Of a stretch of 64,000 nucleotides of DNA, positions 197 through 22,240 are shown in pieces. Under the pieces are notes generated by a model, which was given only the letters and a program-made list of their open reading frames with translations, was not told the origin of the DNA and ran no database searches. Location of the stretch: contig CAWACI010000006.1 in the NCBI GenBank assembly GCA_963780465.1, positions 11,676 through 75,675 of the forward strand, in the 5' to 3' direction. The translations under genes were made by a program, and so were the position numbers. How positions within the stretch are numbered: position 1 is the first letter of the stretch; every line of letters begins with the position of its first letter. This stretch comes from an uncultured Pseudomonadota bacterium. Its GTDB lineage: Bacteria > Pseudomonadota > Alphaproteobacteria > Acetobacterales > Acetobacteraceae.

Positions 197-244
197 AACA
201 ACCTCCAGATTGACCGTGTCATCCTCTACCCAGTACAGTTCCCG

Positions 245-410
245 GGCGATAGGTTTCTCGAAAGAGGATTAAAACGGGAATTTGGGTGCGATGCCCAGGC
301 TGCCCCCGCAACTGTAAGCGACGAATTCTGGCGCATGCAGGCCACTGGGCACCGCCCCGGGAAGGCGCGCCAGGGTGATGAGCCGCAAGCCAGGAGACCT
401 GCCTGTCGTT
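245..410 (+). promoter_or_regulatory. Cobalamin (AdoCbl) riboswitch
   Basis: B12-box hallmarks: AAAACGGGAA, GCTGCCCCCGCAACTGTAAGC, GCCACTG...GGGAAGGC, GAGCCGCAAGCCAGGAGACCTGCC. Lies upstream of the cob genes. Confidence 0.95.
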
Positions 411-605
411 GTCGTCTTTCATCCGGCCGGGGTGTGCCGTATGAACGGGTGCTTATCCCGGATGGCGATGCGTTTGCCGCGCCGACGCGCGGGCCGACGG
501 TACGCCCGATCCTTGCGGGTTTGACATGTCGCGCCTGCCGGCCGGGGCGGATGGTCGTTCACTGCAGGAGATCGTGATGCGCTGTTTAAAACTCGGTTCC
601 GGCGC

Positions 606-1598
606 ATGAGTGCCCCCGGATATTTGCGCCATGGCGGCCGTATGGGCGAGGCGGCAAAGCTGTTCCCGGATGCGCCTTTGCCGTGGATCGACCTCTCCAC
701 CGGCATCAACCCGCATGCCTGGGACGGCCCGCGCGCGGAGTTTGCTGCCCTGCAACGCCTGCCTGACCCAACCGAAACCGCGGCGTTGGAACAAGCCGCC
801 GCCGCGTCCTTCGGCGTGGATGCCAGCCGCATCGCCGCCGTTCCGGGTGCGGAATCCGGCCTGCGCCTGCTGCCCCACCTCACCGGAGCCGCCAGTGTCG
901 GCATTCTCTCACCCACCTATGGCGGGCACGCCGAAGCCTGGGCCGCGGCCGGGCGCGAGATTCATGTTGCGGCGACGGTCGAGGCGCTTCCCGCCACGGA
1001 AGCCCTCGTCATCGTCAACCCGAACAATCCGGACGGGCGAATCATCCCCGCGGAGACGCTCACCAGCCTTGTCACGGACAGCCGGGTGCTGATCGTCGAT
1101 GAATCCTTCGGCGAAATCACCCCGCATCTCAGCGTGGCGGGGGCGGCCAATGACCGGCTGATCGTGCTGCGCTCCTTCGGTAAGTTCTTTGGCCTCGCCG
1201 GCGTGCGGCTCGGCTTTGTCATCGCCGGCCCCGCCATCATCGCCGGGGTCCGTGCCACCTTCGGCGACTGGCCGGTCTCCGCCGAGGCGCTCGCCGCCGG
1301 CACCGCTGCCTACAGAAATCGCGAATGGGCCGACGCCACCCGCGCCCGGCTGCAGCAGGACGCGGAACGGATGGATGCGATGCTGGCGCAGGCCGGGCTG
1401 GAATTGCTGGGCGGCACCGATCTGTTCCGCCTCTGCGCCACCCCGCATGCCGTAAAATGGTTCGAACATCTCGCCCGGCACGGAATGCTGGTCCGCCCCT
1501 TCGCGCAGCAGCCCAACTGGCTGCGCTTCGGTTTTCCCGGCACCGAGGCCGCCTGGCAGCGCCTGCAGACGGCCTTGCAACAAGGGATCGCTTCGTGA
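606..1598 (+). CDS. cobD: L-threonine-O-3-phosphate decarboxylase (CobD; CobC in P. denitrificans nomenclature)
   Basis: HGG start motif, WIDLSTGINP, NPNNPDG, IVDESF and the PLP-lysine motif LRSFGKFFGLAGVRLGF. Confidence 0.93.
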   Translation: MSAPGYLRHGGRMGEAAKLFPDAPLPWIDLSTGINPHAWDGPRAEFAALQRLPDPTETAALEQAAAASFGVDASRIAAVPGAESGLRLLPHLTGAASVGILSPTYGGHAEAWAAAGREIHVAATVEALPATEALVIVNPNNPDGRIIPAETLTSLVTDSRVLIVDESFGEITPHLSVAGAANDRLIVLRSFGKFFGLAGVRLGFVIAGPAIIAGVRATFGDWPVSAEALAAGTAAYRNREWADATRARLQQDAERMDAMLAQAGLELLGGTDLFRLCATPHAVKWFEHLARHGMLVRPFAQQPNWLRFGFPGTEAAWQRLQTALQQGIAS

Positions 1599-2215
1599 CC
1601 GAGGAGGAGCAGGAAGCCGAACGCAACCGCCTTCATGCCGAGGAGCGCAAGGCGGTCAAAGCCGAGCGCGTGGGGATGATGCAGAGCAAGACGCAAACCG
1701 GCGGCCTGCTCCTGGTGCATACCGGCGAGGGCAAAGGCAAATCCACCGCCGGCTTCGGCATGGTCGCGCGCGCTCTGGGCTGGGGCCAGCGCGTCGGCGT
1801 GGTGCAATACATCAAGGGCAAATGGATCACCGGCGAGCGCCGCTTCTTCGCCCGCTTCCCCGACCAGGTCCGCTTTGAGATCATGGGCGAAGGCTTTACC
1901 TGGGACACGCAGGACCGCGCGCGCGATATCGCCGCGGCCGAGGCCGCCTGGGCGAAATCCGTGGAAATGATCGCCGATCCGGAGCTGGACTTCGTGCTGC
2001 TGGACGAGTTGAACGTGGCGCTGCGCTACGAGTATCTCGACCTCGGCAAAGTTGTCGAAGCGCTGAAAAGCCGCCCGCGCGACAAGCATATCTGCGTCAC
2101 CGGCCGCGACGCCAAGCCCGAGCTGATGGAAATCGCCGAATTGGTGACCGAGATGCGCCTGGTCAAGCACCCGTTCCAGCAGGGCATCAAAGCCCAGCGC
2201 GGGGTTGATTTTTGA
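1595..2215 (+). CDS. cobO: Cob(I)yrinic acid a,c-diamide adenosyltransferase
   Basis: GTG start overlaps the cobD stop. Motifs VHTGEGKGKSTAGFG, VQYIKG, GEGFTWDTQ, LLDELN, VTEM..VKHPF. Confidence 0.95.
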   Translation: MTEEEQEAERNRLHAEERKAVKAERVGMMQSKTQTGGLLLVHTGEGKGKSTAGFGMVARALGWGQRVGVVQYIKGKWITGERRFFARFPDQVRFEIMGEGFTWDTQDRARDIAAAEAAWAKSVEMIADPELDFVLLDELNVALRYEYLDLGKVVEALKSRPRDKHICVTGRDAKPELMEIAELVTEMRLVKHPFQQGIKAQRGVDF

Positions 2216-2467: not shown

Positions 2468-3422
2468 TTGATTTTCGCTCCCACACTCGCCCCCTGGCGG
2501 ACGCTGGCCGTGCTCGTGCTGGAGGCCGGCATCGGCTATCCGGACCGGCTGCACAGCATCATCCCGCACCCGGTCGTGTGGGCCGGGCGCGGGATCGCAA
2601 TGCTGGAACAATACTGGAACCGTCCGGACTGGCCGGAGGCCCGGCGCCGCGTTTTGGGCGTGGTCACCCTGGTTTTGATCGCCGGCGCCGCCGCGCTGAT
2701 CGGCTTTGTCATCGACCATTTTGCGGCGAAAAACCGTTGGACCGTGCTGGCGGCCCTGCTGCTCGCCAGCACCGGCCTCGCGCAGCGCAGCCTCTACACC
2801 CATGTCGCCGCCGTCAGCACGGCGCTGCGGTCCAACAACCTGCCCGCCGCCCGGCTCGCTGTCGGCCGCATCGTCGGCCGCGATGTCGCCGGCCTGAATG
2901 CGGAGGGCGTGGCCGCCGCGGCGCTGGAAAGTCTGGCCGAGAGTTTTTGCGACGGCGTGGTCGCCCCCGCTTTCTGGTTTCTCCTCTTCGGCCTCGCGGG
3001 ATTGTTCGCCTACAAGGCCATCAACACGGCGGACAGCCTGATCGGCCACCGCGAGCCGCGCTGGCGCGCTTTCGGCTGGGCCTCCGCCCGGACCGACGAT
3101 TTTTTTAACCTGATCCCGGCGCGTCTGGCGGGTTGCCTGTTGGCACTCGCGGCGCGTGGCGGCTGGCGCGTCATGCTGCGCGACGCGAAAAAACATGACT
3201 TCGCCCAATGCCGGCTGGCCGGAAGCCGCCATGGCGGGGGGCGCAAAAATTCGCCTCGGCGGGCCCGTGGCCTATGACGGCGTGATGCACATCAAACCCT
3301 GGTTCGGTGACGGCCCCGCCCCGCGCGCCGCCGATCTCGCGCGTGGCCTGCGCCTCTATCTCGGCGGCTGCGCCCTGCTCTGGGCAGTTCTGGCAGTGGG
3401 AGGCCTTGCATGGCGAAACTGA
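2468..3422 (+). pseudogene. cbiB: Adenosylcobinamide-phosphate synthase CbiB (CobD), one +1 frameshift as assembled (probably a sequencing error)
   Basis: Motifs HPVVW, ESLAESFCDG, YKAINTADS.IG. At 3200-3201 (extra T in GAC-T-TCG) the KKH(D)SPNAGWPEAAMAG motif moves to another frame ending at 3422. Confidence 0.88.
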
Positions 3423-4891
3423 TGATCCAGGGCTGCGGCTCGGATGTCGGCAAATCCACTTTGGTCGCCGGGCTGTGCCGCCTGTTCACCAATCATGGCC
3501 TTACCGTCCGCCCGTTCAAGTCGCAAAACATGTCCAACAACGCCGCGGTCACGGCGGATGGCGGGGAGATCGGCCGCGCCCAGGCGCTGCAGGCGCTGGC
3601 CTGCCGTACGCCGGCCAGCGTGCACATGAACCCGGTGCTGCTCAAACCCCAGAGCGAGACCGGCGCGCAGCTGATCGTGCGCGGCCGGATGGAAGGCAAT
3701 TGGCGCGCGGCCGCGTATCAGGAGCGCAAAAAGCTGCTGCTCGGCATCTGCCTGGAGAGTTTCCACAAGCTCGAGGCCGAATGCGACCTCGTGCTGGTGG
3801 AAGGCGCCGGCAGCCCGGCCGAGACCAATCTGCGCCGCGGCGACATCGCCAATATGGGCTTTGCCCGCGCCGCCAATGTCCCGGTCGTGCTGACCGGCGA
3901 TATCGACCGCGGCCATGTCATCGCCTCGCTGGTCGGCGCGCATGCCGTGCTCGACGATGACGACCGGGCGATGATCAAGGGATTCCTGATCAACAAATTC
4001 CGTGGCGACCCCACGCTCTTCTCCAGCGGCCGCGCGGAGATCACGCACCGCACCGGCTGGCGGGATTTCGGCATGGCGCCGTTTCTGCCCGCCGCAAACC
4101 GCCTGCCGGCGGAAGACGCGGTGGTGCTGGACCGGGCACGCGCGGGCAGCGGCGGACGGGTGAAAATCGTCGTGCCCCGGCTCGCGCGCATCGCCAATTT
4201 CGACGATTTCGACCCGCTCCAGCACGAACCCTCGGTCGATTTCAGCTTCATTCAACCGGGCACGGCCCTGCCTGGCGATGCCGATCTCGTCATCCTGCCC
4301 GGCAGCAAGGCCACCCTCGCCGACCTCGCAATGCTGCGCCGGGAGGGATGGGATATCGACATCGCCGCCCATCTCCGCCGCGGCGGCCGCGTGCTTGGCC
4401 TGTGCGGTGGTTATCAAATGCTCGGCCGGCGCATCGCCGACCCCGATGGCCTCGAAGGCCCGCCAGGTGCTGCCGAAGGGCTCGGCCTGCTGGATGTGGA
4501 AACCACGCTCACCGGCAACAAAATTCTTACCCCCACAACCGGCCATCTGTCGGCGGATAACGCCGCGTTCGAAGGCTACGAAATCCATATCGGCCGCACG
4601 CACGGGCCGGACACGGCGCGCCCCTTTCTGCAAACCGGAACCGGGCCGCAGGGGGCAGTTTCCGCCAATGGCCGTATCGCCGGCTGCTATGTCCACGGCC
4701 TGTTCCAACAGGGCACGGCCCGCGCCGCGATCCTAAAAACCCTCGGCGCCGCCTCCACCGTGGCTGATCACGGCACGATCGTGGATGCCGCACTCGACGA
4801 CATCGCCGCCACGCTGGCCAAGTATTTCGACATTAACGGCCTCGCCGAAATCGCCGGCCTGCCCGCAAACATCTTTGGGAGTTCCGCATGA
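3410..4891 (+). CDS. cobQ: Cobyric acid synthase
   Basis: [35 protein letters not shown], glutaminase [21 protein letters not shown]. Confidence 0.96.
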
Positions 4892-5922
4892 CACCGTCCT
4901 TCACCGTCCCCGCTCTGGACCGCAGCCTGGAGCCCGCGCTGCGCGCCAAACTGGACGGCCTGGCCAAACCCCCGGGCTCGCTCGGCCGCATGGAGGCGCT
5001 GAGCCTGCAGCTCGGGCTGATCCAGCAACGGCTCGACCCCGCCGTGCAACGCGCCGTGCTGTTCGTCTTCGCGGGCGATCACGGCCTCACCCAGGAAGGC
5101 GTCTCGAACTACCCGGCAAGCGTGACCATCGCCATGGTACAGAGTTTCCTGGCGCAGCGCGCCAGCGCCAACGCGTTTGCCCGCGCGACCGATACGCAAG
5201 TCCGCGTCGTGGATGCCGGTGTCGCCGCCGATCTGGCGCCGCATCCGGCGCTGCTGGATGCGAAAATCGCCCCCGGAACCCGCAATGCCGCGCGCGAACC
5301 GGCGATGACGCCGGCGCAATGCGAGGCGGCCATCGCACGCGGTGCCGCCATCGCCGCAGATGCGGCGGCGGAAGGGTTCGATGTCATCGCCTTAGGGGAG
5401 ATGGGCATTGGCAACACCTCCTCGGCGGCGCTGATCATGCACCGTCTCGCCCCCGCCCCGCTTGCCTCCTGCGTCGGCGTCGGCACCGGGCATGACGCCG
5501 CGGGCCTCGCGCGCAAGCTGGCCACGCTGGAACGCGCTGCCGCCCGCAGCGCCGCATCCGCGCCGCTGGACGTGCTGGCCGAGTTCGGCGGTTTCGAGAT
5601 CGCCATGATGACCGGCGCCATCCTCGGCGCCGCGCGGGCGAAAACCGCCATCCTGGTCGATGGTTTCATCGCCAGCGCCGCGGCGCTCGCCGCCATCCGG
5701 CTGGCACCCGAGGTTCTTCCCTACTGCATTTTTGCCCATTGCTCGGCGGAGGCCGGCCACCGCCTGATGCTGGAATCGCTCGGCGTGCGGCCGCTGCTCG
5801 ACCTAGAACTGCGCTTAGGGGAAGGCACTGGCGGCCTGCTCTGCGTGCCGCTGCTGCGCGCGGCGGCGAATATCCTCACCGAGATCGCCAGCCTGGACGA
5901 TGTGCTGAGCGGAAAACTCTGA
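4888..5922 (+). CDS. cobT: Nicotinate-nucleotide--dimethylbenzimidazole phosphoribosyltransferase
   Basis: [42 protein letters not shown]. Confidence 0.95.
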
Positions 5923-5923
5923 C

Positions 5924-6688
5924 ATGAGGCGGCAACTGGCGCTGCTGCTCTGCGGCGTACAGTTCCTCACGCGCTTGCCGGTCCCGGCGCTGCCCGGCTT
6001 CCAGCCGGACTGGATCAACCGCAGCGCGCGCTATTTCCCGCTTGTCGGCCAACTCGTCGGCCTGACCTCGGCGCTGGTTCTGATCCTCGCCGCAAGACTC
6101 TGGCCAGGCTGGATTTCCGCCCTGCTCGCCCTCATCACCGCCGCACTGCTCACCGGCGCGCTGCATGAGGATGGGCTGGCCGACACCGCCGATGGCTTGG
6201 GCGGCGGGCGCGATGCGGCGCACCGCCTGGCGATCATGAAAGACAGTGCCATAGGCAGCTACGGCGTGCTCGCTCTGGGGTTTTGCTCGTTGTTAAAACT
6301 CGCCAGCCTCGCCGCCCTGCCGCCCTGGCTCGCCGCCTGCAGCCTGCTCGCCGCACATGGCGTGGCGCGCGCCGCCGCCGTCGTCGTCATGCATGCCCTG
6401 CCCTATGCGGGCGATCCCGCCTCCGCCAAGGTGAGCACGCAAACCCTGCCGCCGACGCGCACCGAAACACTGTTTGCGCTGCTGCTCGCCGCCTGGCCGC
6501 TCTTGCTGCTGCCAGGCGCAAAATCGCTGCTTGGCCTTGGCCTCTGCGCCATCGTCACCTTCGCCCTGGCGCGCATCACACTGCGTCTCATCGGCGGCCA
6601 GCGTGGCGACATTTTAGGCGCCGTCGAGCAACTCTGCGAAGCCGGATTCTTGCTCGGCTGCGCCGCCAAAACCGGGATCGTGCTGTGA
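5924..6688 (+). CDS. cobS: Adenosylcobinamide-GDP ribazoletransferase (cobalamin synthase)
   Basis: QFLTRLP, LTGALHEDGLADTADG, IMKDS.IG.YG, GG..GDILGA; hydrophobic protein. Confidence 0.95.
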   Translation: MRRQLALLLCGVQFLTRLPVPALPGFQPDWINRSARYFPLVGQLVGLTSALVLILAARLWPGWISALLALITAALLTGALHEDGLADTADGLGGGRDAAHRLAIMKDSAIGSYGVLALGFCSLLKLASLAALPPWLAACSLLAAHGVARAAAVVVMHALPYAGDPASAKVSTQTLPPTRTETLFALLLAAWPLLLLPGAKSLLGLGLCAIVTFALARITLRLIGGQRGDILGAVEQLCEAGFLLGCAAKTGIVL

Positions 6689-7197
6689 GGCTGATCATCT
6701 GCCCGCTGGCGCAGCTCGACGCGGCTTTGGCCCTGGCCCCGTCGCATGTGCTCACGCTGCTCGCACCGGGCGCCGAGATACCGTCCTGTCCCACCATCGC
6801 CCTTGCCGGGCGCCTCGTCCTTCGCTTCAACGACATTAACGGGCCCGCAGAAGGCTTAACCCACGCCAGCCGCAAAGATATCGAAACCCTCATCGCCTTC
6901 GCGCAAAGCTGGCGCGGCCCCGCCCCGTTCGTGGCACATTGCTGGGCAGGCATCAGCCGCTCGACCGCCGCTGCCTATATCATCGCCTGCCTGCACCATG
7001 CACCCGGCAACGAGCAGGACCTGGCCCTCCGGTTGCGCCACGCAGCCCCGCAGGCCACGCCCAATCCCTGGATGATCGCGCTGGCCGATGACATTCTTGG
7101 CCGCTCCGGACGCATGACCCAGGCCATCACCAGCATCGGCCGCGGCCGCGAAGCCGGGCTGGGAGAGCTGTTCGCGCTGGAAGTGGCCGCTTTTTGA
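6685..7197 (+). CDS. Predicted protein-tyrosine/dual-specificity phosphatase-fold protein (CX5R)
   Basis: GTG overlaps the cobS stop (GTGA). 170 aa with HCWAGISRS P-loop (6937-6963), LRFNDI acid loop and A.PNP..IALAD motif. Confidence 0.85.
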   Translation: MRLIICPLAQLDAALALAPSHVLTLLAPGAEIPSCPTIALAGRLVLRFNDINGPAEGLTHASRKDIETLIAFAQSWRGPAPFVAHCWAGISRSTAAAYIIACLHHAPGNEQDLALRLRHAAPQATPNPWMIALADDILGRSGRMTQAITSIGRGREAGLGELFALEVAAF

Positions 7198-7315
7198 AAA
7201 AAGCGGCGCAAAAACTTATTGTCCCTATGGGACTTTGGCGCTGAAACAAACACAGCCCAGATTAATAAAGTTTTTTTGCTACTTTTTGTTCACAAAAAGT
7301 AGCCTTACCTCTCTA
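7185..7315. repeat. MITE-like repeat, copy 2 (core only) between convergent genes
   Basis: GCCGCTTTTTGAAAAAAGCGGCGC-AAAAACTT...GCCCAG...AAAGTTTTTTTG-CTACTTTTTGTTCACAAAAAGTAG. Confidence 0.88.
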
Positions 7316-7946
7316 CCAGAAACTCCTCCAACTTCCGGCGGTGCTCCCAGCCCGCCCGCTCAAGCTCCGGCTCCACATGCGTTTCAACCGGCCAGCCCAG
7401 GCAGAGATAGGCGATCAACCGCCACCCCGCCGGCACGTTCAGCACATCGTCGATCCCTTCCGGGTCCAGAATCGACACCCAGCCCATGCCGATGCCCCGT
7501 GCCCGCGCGGCGAGCCAGAGCGTGTGCACCGCCGACACCACGGAATATTCCGCCATCTCGGGCATCGTGCGCTGGCCGAGCCCCCGCCCCGTGCCGCTCG
7601 CGCCGTCGCAGAACACCGCAAGCTGCACGGGGGCATCGTCCAGACCGGATAATTTCAGCTTGGCATAGAGCGCCGCCGCCTCGCCGCTATAGCCGCTGAG
7701 CGCCGCCGCGTTGCAGCGCTCGAAATTCTCCCGCACCGCCGCCCGCGCCGCAGCGCTTTTCACGCGCATGAACCGCCAGGGCTGGCTTAAGCCAACGGAA
7801 GGGGCCAGCTGCGCGACCCGCAACAGGCCCAGCAATTCCTCCTCGGGGATTTCATCCCGGCGAAACCGGCGGACATCGCGCCGCCAGCGAAACAGCTCGA
7901 CCAGTGCTGGAAAAAATTCCGGTGCGGTGAAATCCGGTTCCATCAT
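7305..7946 (-). CDS. bluB: 5,6-dimethylbenzimidazole synthase
   Basis: LFRWRRDVRRF, APSVGLSQPWRF, RTMPEM..YS, LWLAARA.GIGMGWVSI, LE..GW. Confidence 0.95.
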   Translation of the reverse strand: MMEPDFTAPEFFPALVELFRWRRDVRRFRRDEIPEEELLGLLRVAQLAPSVGLSQPWRFMRVKSAAARAAVRENFERCNAAALSGYSGEAAALYAKLKLSGLDDAPVQLAVFCDGASGTGRGLGQRTMPEMAEYSVVSAVHTLWLAARARGIGMGWVSILDPEGIDDVLNVPAGWRLIAYLCLGWPVETHVEPELERAGWEHRRKLEEFLVER

Positions 7947-7953
7947 GTCCCTC

Positions 7954-9275
7954 TCAAAAAATCCCGTCGCCGGTGGCGATGGCGTGGAAGAACGCCCCGC
8001 TCACCCGGCCGCGCCTGCCGCCGGAAGGGCCGAGGCTTCTCCCCGCGGCATCACACAATTCCGCCAGCGGCGCGTCCGTCCCTGGCGTCATCACCGAGGC
8101 ATAATGAAACTCATGCCCCCTGATGCCCGCCCCCGCAGCACCCAGCGAATTATCCGCCAGCAGCCTTGCATGCCGATAGCCCAAATTCATCCGCCGCTTG
8201 GCAAAGCTCGTCTCGTGGCTGAGCAGGCCCGTCATCGGATGCACCATGCCATCGGCACTTTGCAGGCTCTCACCCAGCACCATGTAGCCGCCGCATTCGC
8301 CATGCACCGGCCGCGTCTCGGCGAAGCTGGCGAGGCCTGCGGCGAAATTCCCTGCCGCCGCCAGCCGCCCCGCATGCAGTTCGGGATACCCGCCGGGCAG
8401 CCAGCAACTGTCGCAATCCGCCGGCGGCGCCTGGTCGGCCAGCGGCGAGAAGAACACGATCTCGCACCCCGCCCGGCGCCAGCCTTCCAGCACATGGGCA
8501 TATATGAAACTGAACGCCGCATCCCGCGCCATGGCAATGCGCTGCCCCGGCGGCGGCAGCAGTCCCTCACCTTCAGACGGCGACTCCAGGGGGGCTGCCA
8601 GAGCCAAAATCGCCGGCAGATCCAAATGGCTTTCCGCCAGATCGGCCAGCTTCTCCAGATGTTTCGGCAAATCCGGATGTTCCAGCGCCTGCACCAGGCC
8701 GAGATGCCGCTCCGGCAGTTGGATTGTCTCATCGCGCGGGATCGTGCCCAGAATTTTGATGCCGGCGCGCGCCATCGCCTCGGCCACACCTTGGCGGTGC
8801 CGCTCGCTCGCCACGCGGTTCAGCACCACGCCTGCGATGTTCACGCCGGGCATATGGCCGACAAATCCCCGCGCCACGGCGGCAGCGGTCTGGGAATGGC
8901 CGGACACATCGAGGATCAGCACGACCGGCAGCCCGAGCCGCGCCGCCAGATCCGCCCCCGCCCCGGTGCGCCCCTCCGGCCCGGCCACGCCGTCGAACAG
9001 CCCCATGGAGGATTCGATGACCAGATAGTCCGCCCCCCGGCCGCGTAACCCGCCACCGTGCCGAGCTGTTCTGGCGCCATCGCCCAGCTATCCAGGTTGA
9101 AGCTGGGCCAGCCTGTGGCCGCGGCGTGAAACGCCGGGTCGATGTAATCCGGCCCGGATTTCGTCGCCCGGATGCCGAGCCCGCGCCGCCGCGCCGCCGC
9201 CAGCAGCGCCAAAGTCAGCGTGGTCTTGCCGCTGCCCGAGCGCGGCGCGCCGATAACCAGCCCGCGCGCGCTCAT
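7954..9275 (-). pseudogene. cobB: Hydrogenobyrinate/cobyrinate a,c-diamide synthase, one -1 frameshift as assembled
   Basis: N-terminal GAPRSGSGKTT and GPDYIDP..H in one frame; MGLFDG, ERHLGL, LPGGYPELH, GECGGYM, GHEFHY in another. Switch is at the C6 run 9033-9038. Confidence 0.9.
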
Positions 9276-9280
9276 GCCCT

Positions 9281-10449
9281 ATGCTCCCGGCCATGACAGT
9301 TGCGCCCGCCTTGCGTATACCCACCCTCATGGAGCCTGAACCGTTGCTGCGCCGCGGCTGGACGACCGGCGCTTGCGCGACGGCCGCCGCCAAGGCTGCC
9401 TACGCGGCGCTCCTCACCGGTGTCTTTCCCGATCCTGTCGAGATCACGCTCCCGGGCGGCCAGACTGCCGCATTCGCTTTGGCGGAATGTGAGCTTGCGG
9501 AACACAGCGCCAGCGCCGGCGTGGTCAAGGATGCGGGCGATGACCCGGATGTCACCCATGGCGCGCTGATCCGTGCCACAATCACCCGCGGCGCGCCCGG
9601 CAGCGGCGTTACCTTTCGCGCCGGGCCCGGCGTCGGCACCGTGACGCGGCCGGGCCTGGCCATTCCCCCCGGCGAGCCGGCGATCAACCCCGTCCCGCGC
9701 CAGATGATCCACACCGCCATCGCCGGACTGGCCGCGCGATCACGGTGCTCCCGGCGACGTCGTGGTGGAAATCTCCATCCCCGGCGGCGAGGCATCTGGC
9801 GGAACGCACGCTGAACGGGCGGCTCGGCATCCTCGGCGGCCTGTCGATCCTCGGCACCACCGGTATCGTGATCCCCTATTCCTGCTCGGCCTGGATTCAT
9901 TCCATCCATCGCGGCATCGACGTCGCCCGCGCCAGTGGCGTCACGCATGTCGCCGGCGCCACCGGCAACACGTCTGAAAACGCCATCCGCGCCTTGCACG
10001 CGCTGCCGGATGTCGCGCTGATCGACATGGGCGATTTTGTCGGCGGCATGCTGAAATATCTGAAATCCCATCCCGTGCCGCGCATCACCGTCGCCGGCGG
10101 GGTCGCGAAAATGACCAAGCTGGCGCAGGGAAGGCTCGATCTGCATTCCAAACGCGGCGAGGTGGATCTTTCGCTCCTCGCCACCCTGGCTGATGAAATC
10201 GGCTGCGGACCGGAAATTGCCGCAAAAATCCGGCACGCCAACACGGCGGCCCAGGCTTTCGAGCTGGCGCGCGCGCATGGCACGGCGCTGGGCGACGCGA
10301 TTGCCGCGAAAGCCTGGCACGTCGCCGCCGCAGTACTGGAAGGTTCCGGGACGGAACTCGAAATCGTTCTGTTCGACCGCAACGGCAGGCTGGCCGGGCG
10401 GGCGCCGTTTGCCCCCGTCGGCGCTCATGCGCGGAACCGGCGGGTATAG
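9281..10449 (+). pseudogene. cbiD: Cobalt-precorrin-5B C1-methyltransferase CbiD, two +1 frameshifts as assembled
   Basis: LRRGWTTGACA.AA, VKDAGDDPDVTHG, GVG.VT.PGL, AINPVPR, RTLN.RLGI.GGLSILGTTGIV.P.S. Indels near 9735 and 9792. Start could be 9281, 9293 or 9329. Confidence 0.88.
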
Positions 10450-11551: not shown

Positions 11552-12796
11552 GGTTTCACCGCCGACCATTGCGTCACCGTCATCCCCGGCCGGAAACCAT
11601 GCAACGTGCCGATCTCATCGAGCCGTTCGACCGAGAGCCGCGTCGAGCGTGCCGCCAAATCTTTCCCGCGCCGCGAACAGAGCCGCCTCCGTCTCGATCA
11701 CCACGCCATTCGCGACCATGCGCCCGCCCGGCCGCAACGCCTGCCAGGCCGTCTCGATCACCCCTGGCAGATGCGCCCCGCCGCCCAGAAACACCGCATC
11801 CGGCACCGGCAGGCCAGCAAGAATTTCCGGCGCGCGGCCTTGCACCACGCACAGCCCCGGCACGCCGAGACTCACCGCATTGCGGGCAATCCGCGCCGCG
11901 CGCACGGGGTTGGCCTCAATCCCATAAGCCATGTTGTCAGGATGCCGCAGCATCCATTCAATCGCCACCGATCCGGAGCCGCAGCCGACATCCCACAACA
12001 CTTCGCCCGCACAGGGCGCCAGCGCGGAAAGCGTCACGGCGCGGATCTCGCGCTTGGTGATCTGCCCGTCATGCTCGAACATCGCATCCGCCAGCCCCGC
12101 CGTCAGCGGAATGATTTTTGCCCCCGCCCCGGCCGCCACCTCGATCGCGACGAGGTTAAGCTTATGGCAATCGGCGAGGTCGAAGCCCGCCGCCGTGGTC
12201 ACGCGGATGCGCTCGCGCGGGCCGCCCAAGGCCTCCATCACATGCAGGCGCGACGGCCCGAAACCACGCTCGCGATAAATAAGCGGCCACTGAAGCGGGC
12301 GTTGTCGCATCCGCCGACGAAGCGCCAGAATCTTGCGGCCCGGCTGCAGCAACGGGGCAAGCGGCGCCATCGGCCTGCCGCAAAACGAGATGCTGGCCGT
12401 CTGCCGCATCGCCCAGCCCAGCCGGGAGGCCGCCAGGGAGACCGCCGAGGGTGCGGGCAGGCACAAAAACTCTCCCACCGGCACCAAGGCCGCCAGCATC
12501 GTGCCCACGCCGTCGCAAAACGGATCGCCCGAGGCCAGCACCACCACGGGGTACGGGCGGCGCGCCAGGATCAGCGGCAGCGCCGCCCGCCATCGGGCTC
12601 GGCCATGCCATCGTCTCGCCACGGATCAACGGTGCGGCCAGCGCCAGATGCCGCGCCCCGCCGACGACCAAAGATCGCCGTCGCCCAGCAACGACCGCGC
12701 GGCAGAACTCAGCCCCTCGACACCGTCTTCGCCGATGCCCAGTATGCTCAGCCAGCGCGACGCTGGCGGCGCCTCTTCCAGCCCGGTATGGCTCAC
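11548..12796 (-). pseudogene. cobL: Precorrin-6Y C5,15-methyltransferase (CbiE/CbiT fusion), about six single-base indels as assembled
   Basis: WLSILGIGEDG, GARHLAL, VVLASGDPF, FEHDGQITKREIRA.TL, LWDVGCGSGSVAIEW, PDAVFLGGG. After correction it ends ..MTVTQWSAVKP* overlapping the cobE ATG. Confidence 0.87.
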
Positions 12797-12798
12797 CA

Positions 12799-13591
12799 AT
12801 GCCACCGTTAAAAACCCTCATCCTGGGCGGCACGAGCGAAGCCTCCGCGCTCGCGACGCTGCTGGCCCACGACACCCGCTTCGATGCCACGCTCTCGCTG
12901 GCCGGCCGCACCGCCGCGCCGCGCCTGCCGGAAATCCCCTGGCGCAGCGGCGGTTTTGGCGGCGTTGCAGGACTCACACGCTACCTCGCGGACAATGCCA
13001 TCCAGGCGCTGATCGTCGCCACGCATCCCTTCGCCGTGCAGATGCGCCAAAACGTCGCCGCCACCATGCGGGCGACGCAAACTTCCTGTCCTGATGATCG
13101 AGCGCCCGGCTTGGCGCGCCGAAGCGGGCGATTGCTGGAGCGAGGTGCCGGACATGATCCAGGCCGCCGCAGCACTCGGCGCAACGCCGCGCCGCGTGCT
13201 GCTCACCATCGGCCGCAAGGACCTCGCCCCCTTCATGGCGGCGCCCTGGCACGACTATGTCATCCGCAGCGTCGACGCGCCGCCGCCCGAAAGCCTGCCG
13301 CCGCGTGCAAAAATCATCACCGCGCGCGGTCCGTTCTCGCAGGAGGCCGACCGGCAGATGCTGATCGAAGAGCGCATCGCGGTGATCGTCACGAAAAATT
13401 CCGGCGGCGGTGCCACCGACTCCAAACTGCACGCGGCGCGGGAGCTGGGCCTGCCCGTGATCATGGTCGCCCGCCCGCTTTGGCCGGATGTCAGCGGGCT
13501 GGGCGCCGGCAGGGCGGAGGATGCCACCGGCGCGCTCCGCTGGCTGGAGACCCTGTCTCACCCCGCTTCCCCGGCAAAGCGCGGCGTATAG
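12799..13591 (+). pseudogene. cobK: Precorrin-6A reductase, one +1 frameshift as assembled
   Basis: LILGGTSEA, SLAGRT..P, GGFGG..GL, ATHPFA. An extra A near 13079-13081 shifts to ..ERPAW, LTIGRK, ARGPFS, VTKNSGG. Confidence 0.9.
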
Positions 13592-14319
13592 ACCCAGGGC
13601 GCCTGCCCGGGCCGTTCGATCCGCCTTGTCGCCGCCGTGCCGATCATCACCAGCGTGCGCATATCCGCGCGCGCCGGGTCGGCTTCGCTTAAGGGGAAAA
13701 TATCAATCCGCTCCTCCGGCCGGCTGACGGCGGTGGCGAACACCACCGGTGTCTCCGGCGGCAGAATTTGCCGCAGCATCTCGAACGCCGCGTTCAGCTG
13801 CCAGGGCCGCGCGCGGGAGAGCGGGTTGTACAGCGCCATCACGAACCCCGCCTCGGCCGCCGCGCGCAGGCGAAGCAGCACCAGCTCCCAGGGTTTGAGG
13901 TTATCGGAGAGCGAGATCGCGCAAAAATCATGGCCGAGAAACGCGCCGATCCGCGCCGCCGCGGCGAACATCGCGGACACCCCGGCCACCACCTCGACAT
14001 CGAGCTCCCGCCACGCCGGATCGCCCTTGTCGATCGCCTCGAACACCGCGCTCGCCATGCCGAACACGCCGGCATCGCCGGAGGAGAGCACGGCAACAAC
14101 CCGCCCCTGCGCCGCCATCGTCAACGCGTGGCGCGCCCGCTCAAGCTCTTCCCGGTTGTCCGAGATATGCCTCACCTGCCCGGCCACCGGCGGCGCGCGG
14201 TCGACATAGGGGCCGTACCCGACCAGGTCGGTGGCCTGCGCCAGTGCCGCTGCCGCCTGCGGCGTCTGCACCGAGGCACTGCCCGGGCCCAGCCCGATAA
14301 TCCATAATTTTCCGCTCAT
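13558..14319 (-). CDS. cobJ: Precorrin-3B C17-methyltransferase
   Basis: IIGLGPG, SDNREE.ERA, SSGDAGVFGMA, GHDFCAISLSDNLKPW, YNP.S..RP, YTPR. Confidence 0.95.
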   Translation of the reverse strand: MSGKLWIIGLGPGSASVQTPQAAAALAQATDLVGYGPYVDRAPPVAGQVRHISDNREELERARHALTMAAQGRVVAVLSSGDAGVFGMASAVFEAIDKGDPAWRELDVEVVAGVSAMFAAAARIGAFLGHDFCAISLSDNLKPWELVLLRLRAAAEAGFVMALYNPLSRARPWQLNAAFEMLRQILPPETPVVFATAVSRPEERIDIFPLSEADPARADMRTLVMIGTAATRRIERPGQAPWVYTPRFAGEAG

Positions 14320-20436: not shown

Positions 20437-21474
20437 TCCCGCGATCATTGTCTCGATGCCGGCGCGATCCATCCCCGTACGGCCGATCACCACCAGATGC
20501 CCGTCCCGCGCCTCGCCCGGCGCCCAGGCTCGGGTGAAATCCTGGCGGAAACGCGCGCCGACTCCCTGGATTTCCAGCCGCATCGGCTTGCCGCGCACGG
20601 CGATAAAGCCCTTGATCCGTAAAATATCATGCGCCGCCGCCGCCGCTTCCAGCCGGGCCAGCAGCTCGGCTGGCGTATCCATTTCGGCGATGGGCACGAC
20701 GAAACTCTCGAAATCGTCATGCTCATGCGCGCCATCCTCGGCATCGTGATGCGAGGGCCGCGCCGCCAAGTCATCTTCGGCTGCCGCGGCGAGGCCCAGC
20801 AGCACTTCCAGGTCCAGCCTGCCGTTGCTCGCCGCGACCAGTTTCACCGCGCGCGGCAGTTCCCCGGTGATCATGGCACGGACCCGCGCCAGCTCGTCCG
20901 CGCCCAGCAGGTCGGACTTGTTCAGGATCACGAGATCCGCGGCGCGGAGCTGGTCCTCGTACACTTCCGCCAGCGGGTTATCATGGTCGAGCGAGGGATC
21001 GGCGGCGCGCTGCAGGGCGACCGCCTCCGGGTCGTCCGCGAAGCGCCCGGCCGCCACGGCCGGACCATCCACCACGGCGACGACGCCATCCACGGTGAGG
21101 CGCGAGCGGATGCTCGGCCAGTTGAACGCCTTGATCAGCGGCTTAGGCAGAGCCAGGCCCGAGGTCTCGATGAGAATATGCTCCGGCGGGTTGGGGCGAT
21201 CCATCAGCGCCTCGATGGTCGGCACGAAATCATCCGCGACCGTGCAGCAGAGGCAGCCATTGGCGAGTTCGACGATGTCCGTCTCCGGGCAGTTCTCCAG
21301 CCCGCAGGTCTGCAGAATATCGCCATCAACGCCGCGCGAACCAAACTCGTTGACGATCACCGCCAGCCGCCTGCCGCCGGCATTCTCCAGAATATGCCGC
21401 ACCAAAGTGGTTTTCCCAGCACCGAGAAAGCCGGTGATGATGGTGGCGGGGGTTTTTACAGCCTGCAAGTTCAT
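20434..21474 (-). CDS. cobW: COG0523 GTPase, cobalamin biosynthesis protein CobW
   Basis: ITGFLGAGKTT, VNEFG, ELANGC.CCTV.DDF, ETSGLALPKPL..AF.WP, HHD...HEHDDF. Confidence 0.96.
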   Translation of the reverse strand: MNLQAVKTPATIITGFLGAGKTTLVRHILENAGGRRLAVIVNEFGSRGVDGDILQTCGLENCPETDIVELANGCLCCTVADDFVPTIEALMDRPNPPEHILIETSGLALPKPLIKAFNWPSIRSRLTVDGVVAVVDGPAVAAGRFADDPEAVALQRAADPSLDHDNPLAEVYEDQLRAADLVILNKSDLLGADELARVRAMITGELPRAVKLVAASNGRLDLEVLLGLAAAAEDDLAARPSHHDAEDGAHEHDDFESFVVPIAEMDTPAELLARLEAAAAAHDILRIKGFIAVRGKPMRLEIQGVGARFRQDFTRAWAPGEARDGHLVVIGRTGMDRAGIETMIAG

Positions 21475-21866
21475 GAATTTTCCTTCGGTTCAGTGGCCGG
21501 TTCCAGCCCATAGGCCGGAAAGCGGCTGAGAATGGCATTGGCGAGAGACGCCGCCCGGCGTGACGGCATCACCGCCCCGGTCGCCGAGGCGCCATAGAGG
21601 CGGGCATAATCAAGGATATCGGCGGCATGCTCCGGCGTCAGGCGTCCCAGGAGGTAGCCGAAATGCTTGCCGGGCATAAAAATCGACGCCGTGCATCCGT
21701 GTTCGCACGCCGCAAGGCAGGAGACAGGCCGCAACGCCACCGGCGCCGGGTCCGCCAGCAACGCTTCCAGCGCCGCGTAAAGAAGCTGCCCGGGGCGTTC
21801 CTCGGACTCCATGCCGGCCTTGCAGGTAACGCAAACGTGCAAAACGGCGGATACAGGTTTCGTCAC
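21471..21866 (-). CDS. DUF1636-like small Cys-rich putative metal-binding protein
   Basis: GTG start at 21866 after GGGGAAG. LHVCVTC, VSCLAAC..GCT, YL.G.L, Y.AS..G..P..R. Stop overlaps the cobW ATG. Confidence 0.8.
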   Translation of the reverse strand: MTKPVSAVLHVCVTCKAGMESEERPGQLLYAALEALLADPAPVALRPVSCLAACEHGCTASIFMPGKHFGYLLGRLTPEHAADILDYARLYGASATGAVMPSRRAASLANAILSRFPAYGLEPATEPKENS

Positions 21867-21996
21867 AACTTCCCCAGTGCGCGCATGCAAACGCGTGTCC
21901 GGGGCGCGGACCGACCATAAACGATCATTTGCCGGAATAAATTCCAACAAATGAAGCTGGCCGAGGCGCCCCGCCCGGTCAACGTTGAGACATGAT

Positions 21997-22165
21997 GGCA
22001 GGTCTCCTGGCTTGCGGATCGAACGCACCCGTCAGCCTTCCCGGAGATATTCCAGTGGCTGAGAGACGGGCGCTTTCCGCTTACAGTTGCGGGGGCAGCT
22101 GAGGGATCGAGCCGTTGGCTCTCACCTCATTCCCTATTCACCTTCACAAAAGAAGGACCATCGCC
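21997..22165 (-). promoter_or_regulatory. Cobalamin (AdoCbl) riboswitch
   Basis: Reverse strand reads ...AATAGGGAATGAGG...GCTGCCCCCGCAACTGTAAGCGG...GCCACTGGAA..CCGGGAAGGC...CGCAAGCCAGGAGACCTGCC. Heads the DUF1636-cobW-cobN arm. Confidence 0.95.
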
Positions 22166-22240
22166 GGCTAGGTAATCTGCCGGCGATTGCTCTGTCAACG
22201 AAAGCGCAAAGCGTCTGGCCCTCGGCCGAGGGCCATGGTC

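Follow-up and report, generated by a model that had tools for sequence, protein, structure and literature searches.

A cobalamin (B12) biosynthesis locus in an uncultured bacterium of the Acetobacteraceae (NCBI GenBank assembly GCA_963780465.1) raises the question of which enzyme removes the 5'-phosphate at the end of nucleotide-loop assembly. The locus lies on an 80-kb contig (CAWACI010000006.1, here C6), of which we analyzed the 64,000 nucleotides from position 11,676 to position 75,675, hereafter the window. With cobT and cobS in the window and CobU just to its left, the locus otherwise accounts for every enzyme of nucleotide-loop assembly apart from a phosphatase; besides CobU, the contig's left flank carries prpC, prpD, and unrelated genes, with no phosphatase gene among them. 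Directly behind cobS stands an open reading frame (ORF) for an enzyme of predicted protein tyrosine phosphatase (PTP) fold; it closes the cobD-cobO-cbiB-cobQ-cobT-cobS operon, which is headed by a riboswitch and converges on bluB. From comparative genomics we consider it fairly likely that this protein, together with the clade of its homologs that is linked to cobS, is a recruited phosphatase of adenosylcobalamin-5'-phosphate (AdoCbl-5'-P) or alpha-ribazole-5'-phosphate (alpha-ribazole-5'-P). Judged by its gene contexts, the wider phosphatase family is not specific to B12.

The phosphatase ORF (window 6685-7197, plus strand) begins with a GTG at 6685 that overlaps the stop codon of cobS (5924-6688) as GTGA, encodes 170 amino acids (aa), and ends with a TGA at 7195-7197. 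Its translation contains a CX5R-S/T P-loop, HCWAGISRST, at residues 85-94, bearing out an earlier note on this DNA that had described a 170-aa HCWAGISRS protein in GTGA overlap with cobS. Its placement at the end of a riboswitch-led cobD-O-cbiB-Q-T-S operon, also claimed there, agrees with the curated models for these genes and with a cobalamin riboswitch (RF00174) at 234-420. The ORF is unbroken, and more than 1300 homologs align with it along its entire length (the nearest 66-90% identical), a number from which we take it to be real; where named in public databases, these homologs are called "predicted protein tyrosine phosphatase." No Pfam family passed its cut-off (PF14566, 18.1 bits against 27; PF00102, 14.2 against 20.9; PF22785, 12.7 against 27; PF00782, 11.6 against 33.5), NCBIfam gave zero matches, and our literature searches returned nothing tying the family or "COG5350" to cobalamin. 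On these profile comparisons, the protein is a member of a divergent, uncurated subfamily of the PTP superfamily. Neither PF00300 nor TIGR03162 matches it, and its predicted fold is that of a dual-specificity phosphatase (DSP), with the RHG histidine-phosphatase fold absent; it is not a member of the CobC family and is at most a functional analogue of CobC.

An AlphaFold2 model computed with a 20-homolog alignment was confident (predicted local distance difference test [pLDDT] 93.1, predicted template modeling [TM] score 0.91). The top 50 Foldseek matches of this model are DSP/PTP-fold phosphatases, the best of them (probability 1.0, TM 0.55-0.61, 13-20% identity) including DUSP8, DUSP22, and DUSP15, and a profile of the 20 homologs searched against the PDB reaches PTP-like phytases and DUSPs over the P-loop region. 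Residues H85, C86, D50, R92, S93, and T94 are invariant across 80 aligned sequences, and the P-loop is likewise invariant in the 20-homolog alignment. The putative general acid is D50 (in the motif RFNDI), which precedes C86 by 36 residues as counted along the sequence and is followed by a loop modeled at pLDDT 77; in DSPs, the general-acid Asp sits on a mobile loop and usually precedes the catalytic Cys by some 30-40 residues. The C-terminal part of the protein is helical and conserved, with the motifs ATPNP and IGRG. Taken together, the invariant catalytic residues and the confident DSP-fold model indicate a divergent cysteine phosphatase with a predicted DSP fold that is probably active.

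To place the gene in context, we surveyed the best 80 loci found by tblastn in one-genome-per-species contigs. The order cobT-cobS-phosphatase occurs at 15 of these 80 loci, in Acidocella, an uncultured relative, Brevundimonas, Caulobacter, and one Rhodospirillaceae genome (one Brevundimonas contig of the survey ends at the phosphatase gene). Counting the window as the sixteenth, a start/stop overlap of the form NTGA (ATGA, GTGA, or TTGA) is present at 15 of 16 cobS-phosphatase junctions, and three metagenome homologs (54-62% identity) sit in the order cbiB-cobQ-cobT-cobS-phosphatase with a 4-nt overlap. In a maximum-likelihood tree, every cobS-linked copy falls in one clade (support 99/91), which also contains two orphans and one long-branch sequence linked to an HD-hydrolase gene. 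The clade spans Acidocella, Brevundimonas, Caulobacter, and a Rhodospirillaceae genome and crosses the species tree: within the Caulobacteraceae, Phenylobacterium has an HD-type copy, and Caulobacter and Brevundimonas have the cob-type copy. The window's CobT and CobS share 51-85% identity with their counterparts in the cobS-linked clade versus 33-42% with those of G034 and G297, two genomes from the window's own bacterial family, suggesting that the cobT-cobS operon, phosphatase gene included, travels as one inherited or transferred unit. Caulobacter loci without a detected cobQ retain the phosphatase gene together with cobD, cobO, cbiB, cobT, and cobS, a minimal nucleotide-loop or salvage set. 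Among the relatives, a riboswitch ahead of the operon was found within the 8-kb flanks at L011 alone; none was found at L010, and the other operon starts lie at or beyond the locus edge.

We next asked what occupies the position behind cobS elsewhere, using a fixed sample of 301 alphaproteobacterial genomes searched for the phosphatase family, CobS, and CobC (TIGR03162). Among the 137 genomes with cobS, at least 56 carry a CobC-like histidine phosphatase (TIGR03162, 102-172 bits) less than 3 kb from cobS, and at least 48 carry one directly downstream on the same strand at less than 200 bp; both counts are lower bounds based on the best 150 matches. G034, where 92 bp separate cobS from a CobC-like gene on the other strand, is included in the first count and not in the second. 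The PTP-fold gene occupies this same slot in the window's genome and in G025, and none of the 12 genomes with a cobS-phosphatase arrangement has a CobC-like gene beside cobS, so that the anticorrelation with cobC foreseen in the earlier note is seen at the position behind cobS. This is the pattern that gene order would be expected to take after in situ non-orthologous displacement of CobC. The curated TIGR03162 cut-off (162.9 bits) is passed by only 2 of the 301 genomes, as against at least 48 with a cobS-adjacent candidate, and as an equivalog threshold it therefore misses most alphaproteobacterial CobC candidates.

The same searches bear on whether a CobC is encoded away from cobS. In 6 of the 12 cobS-phosphatase genomes (four Brevundimonas, an uncultured relative, and G011), the best TIGR03162 match scores 42-52 bits and covers only the first approximately 105 of 176 model positions; by this profile evidence, these six are without any CobC-like gene. 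For the window's genome, the earlier note's observation that the 22-kb cluster has no histidine-phosphatase cobC extends to the whole of C6, on which PF00300 and TIGR03162 find no histidine phosphatase; across the genome, these models place such proteins on contigs C8, C12, and C16 only. A canonical cobC elsewhere in the genome or just left of the window would have spoken for the ordinary enzyme, and the whole-genome search returned nothing above the TIGR03162 cut-off. The best match, at 81 bits, is on C8, where its neighbors are an ABC transporter and unrelated genes, with no cob context, and it has no tblastn match (E<1e-6) to the loci of G034 and G272 that have cobS-adjacent CobC-like genes. 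Many genomes without cobS contain proteins that outscore it (for example, G021, 7e-30, and G024, 8e-31).

Combining these lines, we infer a substrate and a mechanism from gene context and from the PTP superfamily. One lineage of an alphaproteobacterial phosphatase family has been captured at the 3' end of a cobT-cobS module, with its translation coupled to that of cobS, and most likely carries out the final step of the pathway by taking the 5'-phosphate off AdoCbl-5'-P (the CobS product), alpha-ribazole-5'-P (the CobT product), or both. The histidine phosphatase CobC would thereby have been replaced by a PTP-fold enzyme at the same gene position. By analogy with other members of the superfamily, the P-loop and Arg92 would bind the phosphate for attack by the Cys86 thiolate, the ribose 5'-O leaving group would be protonated by Asp50, and the phospho-cysteine intermediate would be hydrolyzed with help from Ser93/Thr94.

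A number of observations weigh against this proposal. The earlier note had suggested checking the homologs for linkage to cobT and cobS; this holds for one clade (the 15 loci together with the window, G025, and the metagenome contigs) and fails for the remainder. At 59 of the 80 loci, a YfbR-like HD hydrolase gene (PF12917) lies directly upstream of the phosphatase gene, and at about half of these 59 a NadQ-type NAD regulator with an NrtR winged-helix domain follows directly downstream. Of the 25 sample genomes that carry a close member of the family, 11 are without cobS, and the family is not enriched in cobS-positive genomes (14/25 versus 123/276, p=0.3). Because most homologs are unlinked to cob genes, a family-wide B12 role is weakened, and the replacement of CobC proposed in the earlier note, well supported by gene order for the cobS-linked clade, is not general to the family. 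Two genomes carry an HD-linked copy in addition to a cobS-adjacent CobC. G011, a metagenome-assembled genome (MAG) of the Caulobacteraceae that may be incomplete, has a cob-clade copy with no cobS detected. Histidine phosphatases also remain as possible substitutes: the other six cobS-phosphatase genomes, the window's included, have 81-106-bit proteins of this kind elsewhere, and the weakly CobC-like C8 protein might be the real phosphatase.

The relationship between the two types of copy is also relevant here. Each genome has one family copy, and Brevundimonas, Caulobacter, and G011 keep the HD and NadQ genes adjacent with the phosphatase gene absent between them (L095 in G003, L096 in G009, and L098 in G011), the sole copy in each of these genomes being of the cob clade. 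The single copy and this HD-NadQ "scar" suggest that cob- and HD-type copies are interchangeable and have some non-B12 activity in common, and the HD-linked copy seems to have become dispensable once a cob-linked one was present. The cobS-linked and HD-linked clades are not cleanly told apart by any residue (none at strict thresholds, seven weak positions at loose ones), and both have the catalytic and the other invariant residues; nothing here points to a new specificity. These comparisons suggest a single activity, conserved throughout the family, on a small phosphate ester, which the cob operon would have recruited rather than evolved.

The HD hydrolase-phosphatase-NadQ trio (L012-L089, 59 loci; for example, L024:7236-9498) is co-directional with short gaps, and genes for Tag, YgfZ, and dihydroorotase are often found upstream of it. 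We considered whether HD-linked copies replace CobC in trans and set this aside, as depletion of cobS-adjacent CobC in their genomes was not significant (2/12 versus 54/123, p=0.12). Ten cobS-positive genomes with an HD-linked copy have cobS and cobT divergent and nothing phosphatase-like behind cobS. A homolog of the HD hydrolase was not found in the window's genome, and its NadQ homolog (302 aa) directly precedes nadA and nadB in the same orientation (C16:81945-85486); NadQ with nadABC is the classic arrangement. A second, remoter group of homologs (80-120 bits) aligns over positions 2-150 only, with no C-terminal part, and is present in G025 (C1:1663684-1664133) and about 30 other sample genomes, sometimes beside a member of the close family.

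The strongest rival to B12 recruitment, one that we nonetheless rate as unlikely, is that the gene is a passenger: the family would have one B12-independent housekeeping activity, exercised beside the HD hydrolase and NadQ, and the gene would merely have landed behind cobS in an operon that then spread. The B12 step would fall to some other enzyme, perhaps the histidine phosphatase on C8 or a phosphatase of broad specificity. The HD/NadQ context of most members, the carriers without cobS, the lack of clade-specific residues, the single copy with its HD-NadQ scar, the G011 copy, and the weak CobC-like protein in the window's genome would all fit such a history. It sits poorly with the overlap with cobS, which argues for selection on co-expression: 15 of the 16 junctions retain it, although they come from at least three orders and the proteins are only 45-66% identical; nor would a passenger be expected in the exact slot that a CobC-like gene holds in at least 48 other genomes, or in six carrier genomes without a CobC-like candidate.

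Rather less probable, in our view, is that the enzyme acts on another small phosphorylated metabolite, such as nicotinate mononucleotide (NaMN), nicotinamide mononucleotide (NMN), or another 5'-phosphoribosyl N-glycoside, draining or balancing a pool in a way useful both beside NadQ and HD and beside CobT and CobS. The family does adjoin a YfbR-like 5'-nucleotidase-type HD protein and the NAD regulator NadQ, its catalytic residues are identical in both clades, and CobT takes its ribosyl-phosphate from NaMN. Hydrolysis of NaMN beside CobT would, however, waste that substrate, and the replacement of CobC in the same slot would go unexplained. NadQ has been described previously (PMC2330246 and PMC5343134), with the operator ATRCTC-N5-GAGYAT (PMC5343134). 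A search for this operator gave no support for control of the HD-phosphatase pair by NadQ: NadQ boxes were found downstream of nadQ and not upstream of the HD gene, with no sign of a regulatory tie between the pair and NAD genes. Finally, the public name of the family and its nearest solved folds, DUSP-type protein phosphatases, might point to a true protein phosphatase, specific for tyrosine or of dual specificity, whose target would be a regulated phosphoprotein such as a cob enzyme. We regard this as very improbable, since none of the conserved neighborhoods contains a kinase or phosphoprotein partner, all Pfam PTP and DSP gathering cut-offs are missed, identity to DUSPs is 13-20%, and both conserved gene contexts are metabolic.

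Recruitment to B12 synthesis, the reading we prefer, can be compared with known systems. CobC of Salmonella enterica (TIGR03162/PF00300, EC 3.1.3.73) would share with the window's enzyme the proposed reaction and pathway step, and CobC-like genes share its position directly behind cobS; the two differ in fold and mechanism, CobC working through a phospho-histidine and an RHG motif and the phosphatase having a CX5R cysteine P-loop. A precedent for an unrelated family filling the nucleotide-loop phosphatase step is CobZ of the archaeon Methanosarcina mazei, a non-orthologous alternative to CobC (PMC7617358). CobZ differs in being archaeal and of another family, and none of the phosphatase's Pfam matches points to it (no CobZ model or sequence was part of the comparison). 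Atypical DUSPs (DUSP22, DUSP15, and DUSP8; PDB 7c8s, 1yz4, and 4jmk) are alike in predicted fold (Foldseek probability 1.0, TM approximately 0.6, a value that applies to DUSP22 and DUSP15) and have in common the CX5R-S/T P-loop and an Asp approximately 36 residues upstream. The phosphatase departs from them not only in sequence identity but also in its extra C-terminal helices (ATPNP, IGRG), its bacterial origin, and its metabolic operons. PTP-like phytases (PF14566; PDB 3f41 and 1u24) are its best profile-level match in both Pfam and the PDB and offer a precedent for a PTP fold acting on small phosphorylated metabolites, although only some 55 residues surrounding the P-loop are matched, and phytases, which bind inositol polyphosphates, are far larger proteins. 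The "tyrosine phosphatase family protein" of the HD-phosphatase-NadQ trio belongs to the same family (41-53% identity over residues 1-168) and shares the C-terminal ATPNP/IGRG part and the catalytic and other invariant columns; it forms a separate tree clade, has YfbR-like HD and NadQ neighbors, and often occurs in genomes without cobS, whereas the window's gene stands behind cobS.

A broader proposal, which we advance tentatively and with less confidence than recruitment itself, is that the cobS-linked clade represents a third, PTP-fold class of AdoCbl-5'-P/alpha-ribazole-5'-P phosphatase after CobC and CobZ, and that the whole family acts on 5'-phosphoribosyl N-glycosides, nucleotide-like metabolites rather than proteins. 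Such a shared substrate type would explain both why one copy suffices and why the catalytic residues of the two clades are identical. If recruitment to B12 synthesis is borne out, a known reaction would have been solved a third time by a structurally unrelated enzyme, a first function would be assigned to a widespread "tyrosine phosphatase family protein," and the family would prove to be mislabeled as protein tyrosine phosphatases; the locus would also be a clean case of in situ non-orthologous gene displacement. The CobC step is the least well annotated of the B12 pathway: CobC-type genes are difficult to distinguish among histidine phosphatases, and in some B12 producers no CobC candidate is found. 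If the CobC slot is filled by a PTP-fold enzyme, the gap would be closed for Acidocella-like Acetobacterales, Brevundimonas, Caulobacter, and some Rhodospirillales, and B12 producers and salvagers could be predicted better from their genomes.

The features of the locus on which this analysis draws are as follows, in window coordinates.

234-420, plus strand: cobalamin riboswitch heading the plus-strand operon (RF00174, 121.4 bits against a gathering cut-off of 31.5, full model 1-189).
606-1598, plus strand: cobD, L-threonine-O-3-phosphate decarboxylase (TIGR01140, 313.8 bits, cut-off 290.55).
1598-2215, plus strand, start approximate (ORF listed as 1325-2215): cobO/cobA, corrinoid adenosyltransferase (TIGR00708, 229 bits, cut-off 167.75, over residues 126-296 of ORF 1325-2215; PF02572).
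2468-3422, plus strand, in two frames: cbiB, adenosylcobinamide-phosphate synthase (PF03186 positions 4-228 in ORF 2468-3277 and 219-282 in ORF 3156-3422; alignment with intact relatives).
3410-4891, plus strand: cobQ, cobyric acid synthase (NF001989, 600.9 bits).
4888-5922, plus strand: cobT, NaMN:5,6-dimethylbenzimidazole phosphoribosyltransferase, with the product alpha-ribazole-5'-phosphate (TIGR03160, 408 bits, cut-off 319.3; PF02277).
5924-6688, plus strand: cobS, adenosylcobinamide-GDP ribazoletransferase, with the product AdoCbl-5'-phosphate (TIGR00317, 125.7 bits, cut-off 110; PF02654, 173.7 bits).
6685-7197, plus strand: predicted DSP-fold cysteine phosphatase, candidate AdoCbl-5'-P/alpha-ribazole-5'-P phosphatase (translation, cobS overlap, alignment, AlphaFold2, Foldseek, synteny, tree).
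7305-7946, minus strand: bluB, 5,6-dimethylbenzimidazole synthase, last gene of the convergent operon (TIGR02476, 275.5 bits, cut-off 150).
7954-9275, minus strand, N-terminal part in another frame: cobB, (hydrogeno)byrinic acid a,c-diamide synthase (NF002204, 375.5 bits, profile 89-419; frame translations).
21980-22177, minus strand: second cobalamin riboswitch, heading the DUF1636-cobW-cobN ... cobB-bluB operon (RF00174, 126.7 bits; Pfam matches of the downstream ORFs).

Several cob genes of the window are split across frames: cbiB (2468-3422), by an apparent 1-base indel near 3195-3205, cobB (7954-9275), cbiD (9281-10449), and probably others. The splits in cbiB, cobB, and cbiD led us to consider pseudogenization of the cob cluster, which was rejected. 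Two essential genes, rpoB with a 614-aa frame and rpoC with a 1164-aa frame, are likewise split (C15:402376-408440), indicating that the assembly is indel-prone and that the splits do not reflect decay of the pathway.

Two further features of the locus were seen. The first gene behind the second cobalamin riboswitch, before cobW and cobN, is a DUF1636 gene (21471-22028, minus strand). The spacer behind the phosphatase gene (7197-7310) contains an A/T-rich palindrome (gctactttttgt...acaaaaagtagc), and closely similar stretches that translate as "KKxFLLLF" occur in other intergenic regions of the genome (for example, C8:~12350-13700 and C6:~11240), suggesting from sequence similarity that the palindrome is a dispersed repetitive palindromic element.

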